From Escherichia phage E26, in sequence record MN655998.1: a stretch of DNA of 64,000 bases, one strand, 5' to 3'. This document shows, piece after piece, positions 18,642 through 19,599 of this stretch (positions are counted from its first letter, which is position 1; the number at the start of each line of letters is the position of its first letter). The position numbers and the translations under genes are program-made. The notes under the pieces were generated by a model, which was not told the origin of the DNA, made no database searches, and saw only the letters and a program-made list of their open reading frames with translations.

Positions 18642-19001
18642 TTAGTCACGGGACGACAACCCAGCCATAAAACGGCTTAACAGTGTGTCGCGATAAGCAA
18701 AGCATAATTGCTTATCAGGGGCAGTATCACAAAGGTTGCGTTTTGTTTTAGCAAAGCTGGCAATACTCAGATCCCACGCTCGATTTTTTCGTTTTTCGTC
18801 TCGACCTTGTTTGTATGCTTCGTCGAGTTCGAGCGCGATAAAATCACTACACATGTTATCATCATCACAGAAAGTTTTAATGATCTTTTTGTTGATCTCA
18901 AATCCTTTGTATTCAAACTTTGGATAAGGGCGCTCATTACTAGCAAGCGCACCAGCCGAGAACATCATAGCAATCATAGCAATTATTGTCAACTTTTTCA
19001 T
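18642..19001 (-). CDS. secreted protein with signal peptide
   Basis: N-terminus MKKLTIIAMIAMMFSAGALA; four Cys in the mature part. Confidence 0.5.
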   Translation of the reverse strand: MKKLTIIAMIAMMFSAGALASNERPYPKFEYKGFEINKKIIKTFCDDDNMCSDFIALELDEAYKQGRDEKRKNRAWDLSIASFAKTKRNLCDTAPDKQLCFAYRDTLLSRFMAGLSSRD

Positions 19002-19008
19002 ATATTCC

Positions 19009-19599
19009 TCAATAGCGTTTAGTCTTAAGAATGCCTTTACTCTTTAGATGGTTAGCCTTTTTTAGTACGTCATCAGCATAACCTAATCCGGCTTTATAGT
19101 TCCATCCAGCATTGTAAGAAGCTAGCGCGAGTCGGATATTACCGTTTCTAACATCCAGCCAGTATGCTAACTCATCCATCGCGTAGAATGCAGAAACCTC
19201 GCGATTCATGATAAAGTTGATAGTCTGGCGATCACTCATTTTAACACCGCGCTTTGCATTTTTCGCTTTCACCGTTTTAAGGTAATTTTGAAATAATCCA
19301 TAAGCATGATGATTTTTCTTTGGTGCTAAGTTTGCACCCGCGCTTGATTCTTGCCATGCGATACCCGCCAGGATGTGGCCTAAACCCTTTCCGTTATAGC
19401 GAATATTCGGATGGTACTTTTTCAACTTACCGCTTTTCTCGAATTGCTCGCCGTATTGATAGGCGAAATGTAAATTATCTAGTTGGTGTGCTGTAAAGTT
19501 GTCTATCGGCGCTTTTTTGATCGGTGCGCTAGTCGATGCGTGTGTAGCACCAACGGCTAGTGACAGACTCAATACTATCGCTTTTAGAACTTTTAACAT
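19009..19599 (-). CDS. secreted lytic transglycosylase-like protein (SLT domain)
   Basis: Signal peptide plus WQESS, AYGLFQ and YNAG motifs typical of family-1 lytic transglycosylases. Confidence 0.6.
   Translation of the reverse strand: MLKVLKAIVLSLSLAVGATHASTSAPIKKAPIDNFTAHQLDNLHFAYQYGEQFEKSGKLKKYHPNIRYNGKGLGHILAGIAWQESSAGANLAPKKNHHAYGLFQNYLKTVKAKNAKRGVKMSDRQTINFIMNREVSAFYAMDELAYWLDVRNGNIRLALASYNAGWNYKAGLGYADDVLKKANHLKSKGILKTKRY

Follow-up and report, generated by a model that had tools for sequence, protein, structure and literature searches.

Vs.1 and Vs of Escherichia phage E26: a predicted exported lytic-transglycosylase-like enzyme and its neighbor, a protein labeled valyl-tRNA synthetase modifier with an export-type build

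Two adjacent genes of Escherichia phage E26 (sequence record MN655998.1) lie on the minus strand of a 64,000-nucleotide (nt) stretch of its DNA, referred to here as the window, between regB and a gene for a macro-domain protein. These open reading frames (ORFs) of 196 and 119 residues are the Krischvirus orthologs of vs.1 and vs, which have long been known from phage T4, and are not new genes. The interpretation that we favor, and consider probable, is that vs.1 encodes an exported enzyme of the GH23 family, that vs encodes an exported, disulfide-bonded protein, and that both are part of an early regB-vs.1-vs-tk.4 unit. The one surprise is the mismatch between the label inherited by Vs, a modifier of valyl-tRNA synthetase, and a sequence that looks like that of an exported protein held together by disulfides.

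The identity of the two genes is anchored by their surroundings and by family matches. The region at 18100-20200 is 98-99% identical at the nt level to 57 sequenced Krischvirus genomes (RB49, JSE, Phi1, GEC-3S, MIZ4, and others), which identifies the window phage as a T4-type coliphage of the RB49 group. The gene order on the minus strand is tk (16890-17486), three small ORFs, the macro-domain gene, the 119-residue ORF, the 196-residue ORF, and regB, of which the last four are as follows.

18171-18626, minus strand: macro-domain gene (Pfam Macro, E 1.3e-6)
18642-19001, minus strand: vs ortholog, 119 residues, predicted exported four-helix protein (PHROG 1256, PF26829, BLASTP to T4 Vs)
19009-19599, minus strand: vs.1 ortholog, 196 residues, predicted Sec-exported GH23/family-1 lytic-transglycosylase-like enzyme (PHROG 600, Pfam SLT, identity to T4 Vs.1, AlphaFold2 model with Foldseek)
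19685-20149, minus strand: regB (Pfam REGB_T4, E 3e-48)

A preliminary description of this DNA had placed both ORFs at 18642-19599, between regB and a macro-like gene, and they are real genes at those coordinates. Its proposals for the enzyme family, the export signals, and an early-type promoter have stood; what it did not recognize is that the ORFs are T4 vs.1 and vs. The 196-residue protein matches PHROG 600 (E 1e-59 over residues 6-193), and the 119-residue protein matches PHROG 1256 (E 1.8e-33) and has a precomputed Pfam assignment to PF26829. The two ORFs are named vs.1 and vs in the annotation of JSE, Phi1, RB49, and GEC-3S, T4 shares the order regB-vs.1-vs-tk.4, and identical proteins are held in NCBI/UniRef as "Transglycosylase SLT domain-containing protein" (196 residues) and "Valyl-tRNA synthetase modifier" (119 residues); NCBIfam has no family for Vs.1 or Vs. 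Searches with tblastn matched Vs.1 in 2085 phage records and Vs in 354, with another 796 found when T4 Vs was the query.

The T4 proteins illustrate how much of this arrangement is shared. T4 Vs.1 (NP_049725, UniProt P13311, PHROG 600) is 52% identical to the window Vs.1 over 158 residues, is likewise encoded between regB and vs, and has both a signal-like leader and the same motif set in the form of ES, GMFQ, and YNSG. The window protein differs in being 15 residues longer, owing to a longer linker after the leader, and the spacer between regB and vs.1 is 7 nt in T4 but 85 nt, with a promoter-like site, in the window. T4 Vs (NP_049724, UniProt P13310, PHROG 1256, PF26829) also occupies the position between vs.1 and tk.4 and has the same layout of leader and four Cys residues. 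Its sequence, however, is very diverged from that of the window Vs (27% identity and a pairwise E of 4e-8 by BLASTP, with all four Cys aligned), and binding to valyl-tRNA synthetase has been reported for T-even phages only.

The case for Vs.1 as an enzyme of the lytic transglycosylase type begins with three motifs that the preliminary description had picked out and that are present as claimed: WQESS at residues 82-86, AYGLFQ at 99-104, and YNAG at 162-165. The elements E-S, G-L-M-Q, and A-Y-N-x-G are said to be the defining motifs of family-1 lytic transglycosylases, a definition attributed to Blackburn and Clarke in 2001. Residues 76-167 match positions 16-99 of the 117-position Pfam SLT profile (PF01464) with an E value of 8.1e-6 and 25.8 bits, above the curated cutoff of 21.3. 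Conservation was assessed by aligning 21 homologs (40-89% identity), among which E84, S86, H97, A99-Y100-G101, F103-Q104-N105, S161, Y162, A164, and G165 are invariant and N163 of the SYNAG segment is nearly so (at least 90%). The ES, G.FQ, and YNAG motifs are also kept in distant homologs from Ackermannviridae, Ounavirinae, and Angelvirus, and the Escherichia coli enzymes Slt70, MltE/EmtA, MltC, and MltD have the same set (E-S, G-L-M/F-Q, and A/S-Y-N-A-G).

The catalytic Glu, on whose presence in an alignment the preliminary description had staked its assignment, was located by profile-profile comparison, which replaced a BLASTP search against the Slt70 catalytic domain that had aligned the YNAG fragment alone (E 0.5).

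19348-19350, minus strand: GAA codon of Glu84, predicted catalytic acid in the motif WQE84SS (invariant in 21/21 homologs; hhalign to Slt70 and to a four-enzyme profile)

When the Vs.1 profile was aligned with E. coli Slt70 using hhalign, IAWQE84SS was placed on IARQE505S (precursor numbering), and E505 corresponds to E478 of the mature enzyme, the known catalytic residue. Against a profile built from Slt70, EmtA (MltE), MltC, and MltD, E84 fell in the ES column of an alignment that spans 86 columns from ES to YNAG (E 0.0015), and YGLFQ (100-104) and SYNAG (161-165) were paired with GLMQ and AYNAG. In both alignments, then, E84 of Vs.1 occupies the column of the catalytic Glu. The alignment of the 21 homologs has no invariant Asp or conserved second acidic residue between E84 and GLFQ, a pattern more in keeping with a transglycosylase than with a hydrolytic g-type lysozyme, though no proof of the former.

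Structure prediction is in keeping with this assignment. The AlphaFold2 (AF2) model of Vs.1 is all-helical with a mean predicted local distance difference test (pLDDT) score of 83.6, and E84 sits one residue before the end of a helix at 74-85. When the model was compared with the PDB by Foldseek, ranks 1-23 were all lytic transglycosylases (MltD, Slt, LtgA, Cj0843) or a GH23 chitinase, with probabilities of 0.69-1.00, E values of 0.01-1.7, and template modeling (TM) scores of 0.35-0.50. A goose-lysozyme-like all-helical fold is predicted for Vs.1 with moderate, not strong, support. Together with the Pfam match above threshold, the motifs, and the aligned Glu, these matches bear out the family-1/GH23 lytic-transglycosylase-like character that the preliminary description had given the larger ORF. 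The idea itself is an older one. Nolan et al. listed the SLT similarity of vs.1 for six T4-like phages in 2006 (PMC1524935), and that paper credits Miller et al. 2003 for the similarity of T4 vs.1. The predicted transglycosylase assignment is sound, then, but was already known (published 2003 and 2006). No paper characterizing Vs.1 experimentally was found in a full-text literature search.

What Vs.1 has in common with the E. coli family-1 transglycosylases, besides its motifs, is the alignment of the Glu, a predicted lysozyme-like helical fold, and a periplasmic location, which for Vs.1 is predicted. The differences are considerable: Vs.1 is one small domain that lacks the superhelical domain of Slt70, LysM domains, and a lipid anchor, and it is a phage-encoded, early-expressed protein, remote in sequence, with a subfamily-specific His-His before GLFQ. 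This pair (residues 97-98; 19306-19311, minus strand) directly precedes GLFQ; within the T4-like subfamily, H97 does not vary and H98 hardly does, but neither is kept in distant homologs or in the E. coli enzymes. The predicted mature Vs.1 has a mass of 19.8 kDa, an isoelectric point (pI) of 9.9, and no Cys.

Signal peptides had been proposed for both ORFs in the preliminary description, and a heuristic based on n, h, and c regions passes both. Each N-terminus starts with K/R residues, continues into an uncharged hydrophobic core, and ends in a small-x-small site, and the heuristic detects no further membrane segment in either protein.

19537-19599, minus strand: predicted cleavable signal peptide of Vs.1, codons 1-21, MLKVLKAIVLSLSLAVGATHA before S (heuristic; conserved in the family)
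18942-19001, minus strand: predicted signal peptide of Vs, codons 1-20, MKKLTIIAMIAMMFSAGALA before S (heuristic; conserved in the family)

Vs.1 begins with MLKVLKAIVLSLSLAVGATHA followed by STS, with likely cleavage between THA and S, and Vs begins with MKKLTIIAMIAMMFSAGALA followed by SNE, with likely cleavage between ALA and S. The leader of Vs.1 is a stretch of low pLDDT in the AF2 model. A signal-like N-terminus was found in 20 of 21 Vs.1 homologs, the lone exception being a truncated entry, and the leader is also present on distant homologs of Kuttervirus, Tedavirus, Mooglevirus, and Angelvirus. Among aligned Vs members, 21 of 22 have a signal-like leader, one has a lipobox (LSGC) of the lipoprotein type, and all Vs copies examined from viral loci carry the leader; T4 Vs begins with MTKILVLCIGLISFSASASA followed by D. 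Of the 96 non-overlapping window ORFs put through the heuristic, just three (rI, vs, and vs.1) were signal-like with no further membrane segment. The rI ORF (16519-16821, minus strand, 100 residues) has the signal-like leader MSFIRKTLTAAICLTAVGSVSA before D and matches a gene annotated as rI (lysis inhibition) in GEC-3S. The T4 RI signal peptide is cleavable (PMC8385771), which makes rI a positive control for the heuristic. From these conserved leaders, we infer that Vs.1 and Vs are both exported.

A hidden Markov model (HMM) search of 1.84 billion representative proteins recovered only about 20 Vs clusters, with lengths of 100-135 residues. The AF2 model of the window Vs (pLDDT 80.4) has four helices after the leader, and the predicted mature protein has a mass of about 11.6 kDa and a pI of 8.3. 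In 22 Vs sequences, T4 Vs included, C45, C51, C91, C100, G66, and G114 are invariant.

18702-18869, minus strand: codons of the four invariant Cys of Vs, C-x5-C ... C-x8-C (22-sequence alignment)

Two disulfides are predicted from this layout, and the conserved leader with its positive N-terminus together with the four invariant Cys leads to the prediction of a periplasmic, disulfide-bonded domain. Searches of the PDB with Vs alone and with a Vs profile returned nothing meaningful; weak matches to CP12 and PFL0690c were rejected (E of 0.12 or higher), and a Pfam scan of all 22 members at E of 10 or less gave scattered chance matches only.

The manner in which the two genes are expressed and linked is the remaining element of our interpretation. 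An early-type promoter, which the preliminary description had anticipated, has a counterpart in a match to the sigma-70 consensus in the regB-vs.1 spacer, and the GenBank record of GEC-3S annotates a promoter at the homologous place.

19634-19662, minus strand: sigma-70-type (early-type) promoter-like site, TTGACT-17-TATTAT, in the 85-nt regB-vs.1 spacer (consensus scan, 10/12 matches)
19605-19610, minus strand: vs.1 Shine-Dalgarno sequence AGGAGA, 5 nt before the ATG, containing GGAG (read from the sequence)
19005-19011, minus strand: vs.1 stop TGA (19011-19009) overlapping the vs Shine-Dalgarno sequence GAGGAA (19010-19005), with the vs ATG 7 nt past the stop (read from the sequence)

The GGAG within the vs.1 Shine-Dalgarno sequence is the RegB cleavage motif, so RegB may shut down vs.1 translation as it does for other early mRNAs. 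A MotA-type middle promoter upstream of vs.1 was set aside on spacing. The usual distance from a MotA box to the -10 element is about 12 nt, and the TGCTTGA box found here is 19 nt away. T4 vs and vs.1 are recorded with early RNA and middle protein in a time-resolved omics study (PMC9697503, supplements 4-6), where both proteins were detected by mass spectrometry. The layout of the vs.1 stop and the vs Shine-Dalgarno sequence suggests translational coupling, of which it is typical, and the T4 genes share an 8-nt overlap. To sample the linkage more widely, 69 IMG/VR loci encoding Vs.1 relatives were scanned with HMMs of both families. In every locus that has both genes (38/38), vs is directly downstream of vs.1 on the same strand.

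Taken as a mechanism, our interpretation would run as follows. The two genes would be a translationally coupled pair in an early, leftward regB-vs.1-vs-tk.4 transcription unit. Vs.1 would be exported by the Sec route and its leader cleaved, giving a basic, soluble periplasmic protein of about 19.8 kDa with a goose-lysozyme/SLT (GH23) fold, in which Glu84, near the end of a helix and before a Ser, would be the single catalytic acid. The enzyme would then act on host peptidoglycan as a family-1 lytic transglycosylase, cutting the N-acetylmuramic acid-N-acetylglucosamine (MurNAc-GlcNAc) bond and probably loosening the sacculus from early infection onward as a non-essential accessory to envelope remodeling or lysis. 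Vs would also be exported, to become a periplasmic four-helix fold of about 11.6 kDa held by two disulfides. Where vs is present it is always directly behind vs.1, and for this reason Vs may act on the same envelope process.

Several points weigh against this interpretation. The signal peptides were judged by a simple n/h/c-region heuristic and not by SignalP. The Foldseek figures for Vs.1 are modest (E 0.01-1.7, TM 0.35-0.50), and the hhalign probability is low, at 16.7% with the four-enzyme profile and 0.45% with Slt70 by itself. Searches of the PDB with Vs.1 by phmmer and with a profile of 21 sequences gave no transglycosylase, from which we conclude that the kinship of Vs.1 to solved transglycosylases is remote, though consistent. 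A lytic transglycosylase and a hydrolytic GH23 lysozyme cannot be separated from sequence alone. For Vs, the inherited label, which implies binding to cytoplasmic valyl-tRNA synthetase, contradicts a periplasmic location. With respect to the pairing of the genes, no vs was detected within 3 kb in 31 of the 69 loci with vs.1. Among them are all of the distant homologs and also Aeromonas-type T4-like phages (L045-L047 and L052) whose Vs.1 scores equal those of Vs-linked loci (E 1e-74 to 1e-80), so Vs is not an obligate partner; it is a lineage-restricted insertion behind vs.1. In Tedavirus, a tk.4-like macro gene directly follows vs.1, and the adjacency of vs.1 and vs may accordingly be mere conservation of gene order.

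The contradiction over Vs leads to the best-surviving of the rival explanations, one that we regard as possible, if unlikely. Here Vs would be a cytoplasmic "tau" factor of about 10 kDa acting on valyl-tRNA synthetase, with a leader that does not work or a pool that is partly exported, unrelated to Vs.1 and next to it only for historical reasons. Every database labels the Vs family "valyl-tRNA synthetase modifier", and the many vs.1 loci that lack vs (31/69) would suit a protein with business of its own. The size agrees as well, since the T4 factor is reportedly about 10 kDa (a figure attributed to Marchin et al. in 1972 and Muller and Marchin in 1977) and mature T4 Vs is predicted at 11.0 kDa. 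A T-even factor that binds cytoplasmic valyl-tRNA synthetase and alters it is known from biochemical work (Muller and Marchin 1975 and 1977, as cited in PMC8076793). PMC8076793 also reports that N-terminally His-tagged T4 Vs was insoluble, in inclusion bodies, after expression in the cytoplasm, which speaks against a cytoplasmic protein.

The build of the family argues in the same direction. The leader is kept among members with only about 25% identity, one of which is a lipoprotein, and four invariant Cys suit an oxidizing compartment; a cytoplasm-compatible location is therefore not what was found (leader in 21/22, one lipobox, four invariant Cys). The positive N-terminus would set the leader N-in and C-out, which would leave the domain in the periplasm even if the leader were uncleaved. 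All of this is as true of T4 Vs as of the window protein, and so it is the functional label that is called into question and not the homology. The history of the name is a further consideration, for the T4 gene appears in the 1986 sequence record just as "ORF 60.9" and the name vs was thus attached to it later. The basis for assigning the genetic locus vs to ORF 60.9 was not found in a literature search that did not reach the original vs papers, and a full-text search found no paper discussing a signal peptide in Vs. Marchin is said to have described vs mutants in 1980 with an in vivo phenotype on valS(ts) hosts, which, if correct, would give the label some basis. We leave the conflict between the Vs label and its export-type build standing and claim no misannotation. 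A sharper version of our own interpretation, that Vs is a periplasmic disulfide-bonded envelope protein acting with Vs.1 and that the label either sits on the wrong ORF or reflects binding only after cell breakage, strikes us as rather unlikely.

A second rival would make Vs a dedicated periplasmic regulator or inhibitor of Vs.1 that restrains the transglycosylase until lysis, in the way that Spackle acts on gp5 and Ivy or MliC on lysozymes. By analogy, Spackle is the obvious functional parallel for the Vs-Vs.1 pair: the signal peptide of this T4 protein (gp61.3), 22 residues long, is cleaved off, and its binding partner in the periplasm is a muralytic enzyme of the phage (PMC7650644). Spackle, Ivy, MliC/PliC, and LprI/DUF1311 are, like Vs, small exported proteins (export being predicted for Vs). 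Both members of the pair are predicted to be exported, vs comes directly after vs.1 on the same strand wherever both occur (38/38), the genes look translationally coupled in the window and overlap in T4, and an enzyme exported early would plausibly need restraint. Against these points, the 31 loci without vs within 3 kb include the high-scoring Aeromonas-type phages, and the two mature proteins are both basic (pI 9.9 and 8.3) with no obvious charge complementarity. Comparison of Vs with the known lysozyme inhibitors Spackle, Ivy, MliC/PliC, and LprI revealed no similarity in sequence or fold. Vs as an LprI/DUF1311-type inhibitor was considered and rejected, the only such match being Foldseek rank 5 with an E value of 7.2 and a probability of 0.04. 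Regulation of Vs.1 by Vs, which the preliminary description had raised as a possible role for the small secreted protein, is not supported by distribution or structure, and we judge it improbable.

Equally hard to credit is the proposal that Vs.1 is a lysis-cassette enzyme, a "secreted" signal-peptide endolysin working late with the spanins rather than an early remodeler. Signal-peptide and signal-arrest-release (SAR) endolysins resemble Vs.1 in combining a muralytic domain with passage to the periplasm by the Sec route without a holin (predicted for Vs.1), and some Ounavirinae records term the homolog a "putative lysin". Spanin genes are nearby in a number of phages: Rz-like i- and o-spanin genes (PHROG 739 and 812) come directly after the homolog in one IMG/VR locus (L050, 3519-4180), pseT.3 and pseT.2 just before it in Aeromonas phage AsFcp_2, and the spanins of Mooglevirus Sf15 are 1.2 kb away. 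This adjacency was seen in just a few of the loci examined, however. In both T4 and the window, the early unit is far from t, e, and the spanins, T4 vs.1 RNA is early, and T4-type phages already have the e endolysin. The leader of Vs.1 is moreover classical and apparently cleavable, unlike a SAR anchor, and T4 vs.1 differs from the genes of exported endolysins in being transcribed early, beside a canonical holin-dependent endolysin. The association of vs.1 with envelope and lysis genes is a loose one.

With Vs.1 taken as an early exported enzyme and Vs as its exported neighbor, little is new in the identity of the genes: they are catalogued, databases already contain their exact protein sequences, and the transglycosylase prediction dates back about 20 years. 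The reach of the family is nevertheless wide, with vs.1 in more than 2000 sequenced phages from at least three lineages (Straboviridae, Ackermannviridae, and Ounavirinae). If the interpretation is correct, early exported Vs.1 would add a third muralytic activity to gp5 and the endolysin in T4-type phages, with possible consequences for lysis timing, lysis inhibition, or envelope growth. The export-type build of the Vs family, for its part, makes the classical account of a valyl-tRNA synthetase modifier directly testable.

A number of smaller observations accompany these results. Inside the first vs codons is a strong sigma-70-like match, TTGACA-17-TATGAT (18964-18992, minus strand; 11/12, with an upstream TG), which could be an internal promoter for tk.4 and the downstream genes or could be chance. 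In the Tedavirus Aeromonas phage phiA8-29 (L006, 3015-3734), no vs intervenes between the vs.1 homolog and the next gene downstream, which is a tk.4-like macro/phosphatase gene (PHROG 335, E 2.5e-38); this arrangement extends the vs.1-tk.4 adjacency beyond phages that carry vs. An i-spanin-like ORF lies directly downstream of the vs.1 homolog in another locus (L051, 3416-3862), and the loci in which homologs lie next to or near spanin genes include L007 (1537-2207) and L005 (4251-4761).

Two phages have altered forms of vs. In Escherichia phage vB_EcoM_005 (L012, 3541-3795), the gene is internally deleted, encoding 85 residues instead of 118 with the first Cys pair gone, which suggests that vs is dispensable there. 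Klebsiella phage vB_Kpn_AM_K4 (288 kb; L081, 1701-3207) has a Vs-like C-terminus (HMM E 6e-30) on a 296-residue ORF, the sole Vs-like fragment found without Vs.1. A Rosetta-stone fusion was considered for this ORF and rejected: there is no Vs.1 within 3 kb, and the N-terminal portion of the ORF, which lacks SLT character, recurs in the ORF before it. The fragment probably reflects a duplication or rearrangement at this site, or else faulty assembly.

Finally, the names given to these genes in public records are not always consistent. In several GenBank records, vs.1 is labeled "site-specific RNA endonuclease" or "RegB domain-containing protein", and in some records vs is given as "valyl-tRNA synthetase" itself. 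Records with such odd vs.1 or vs labels include MN850574 (kaaroe), ON645936 (N2), OL615012, MN895434, and vB_EcoM_G2248. They look like annotation slips, taken over from a neighboring gene or from a shortened name.

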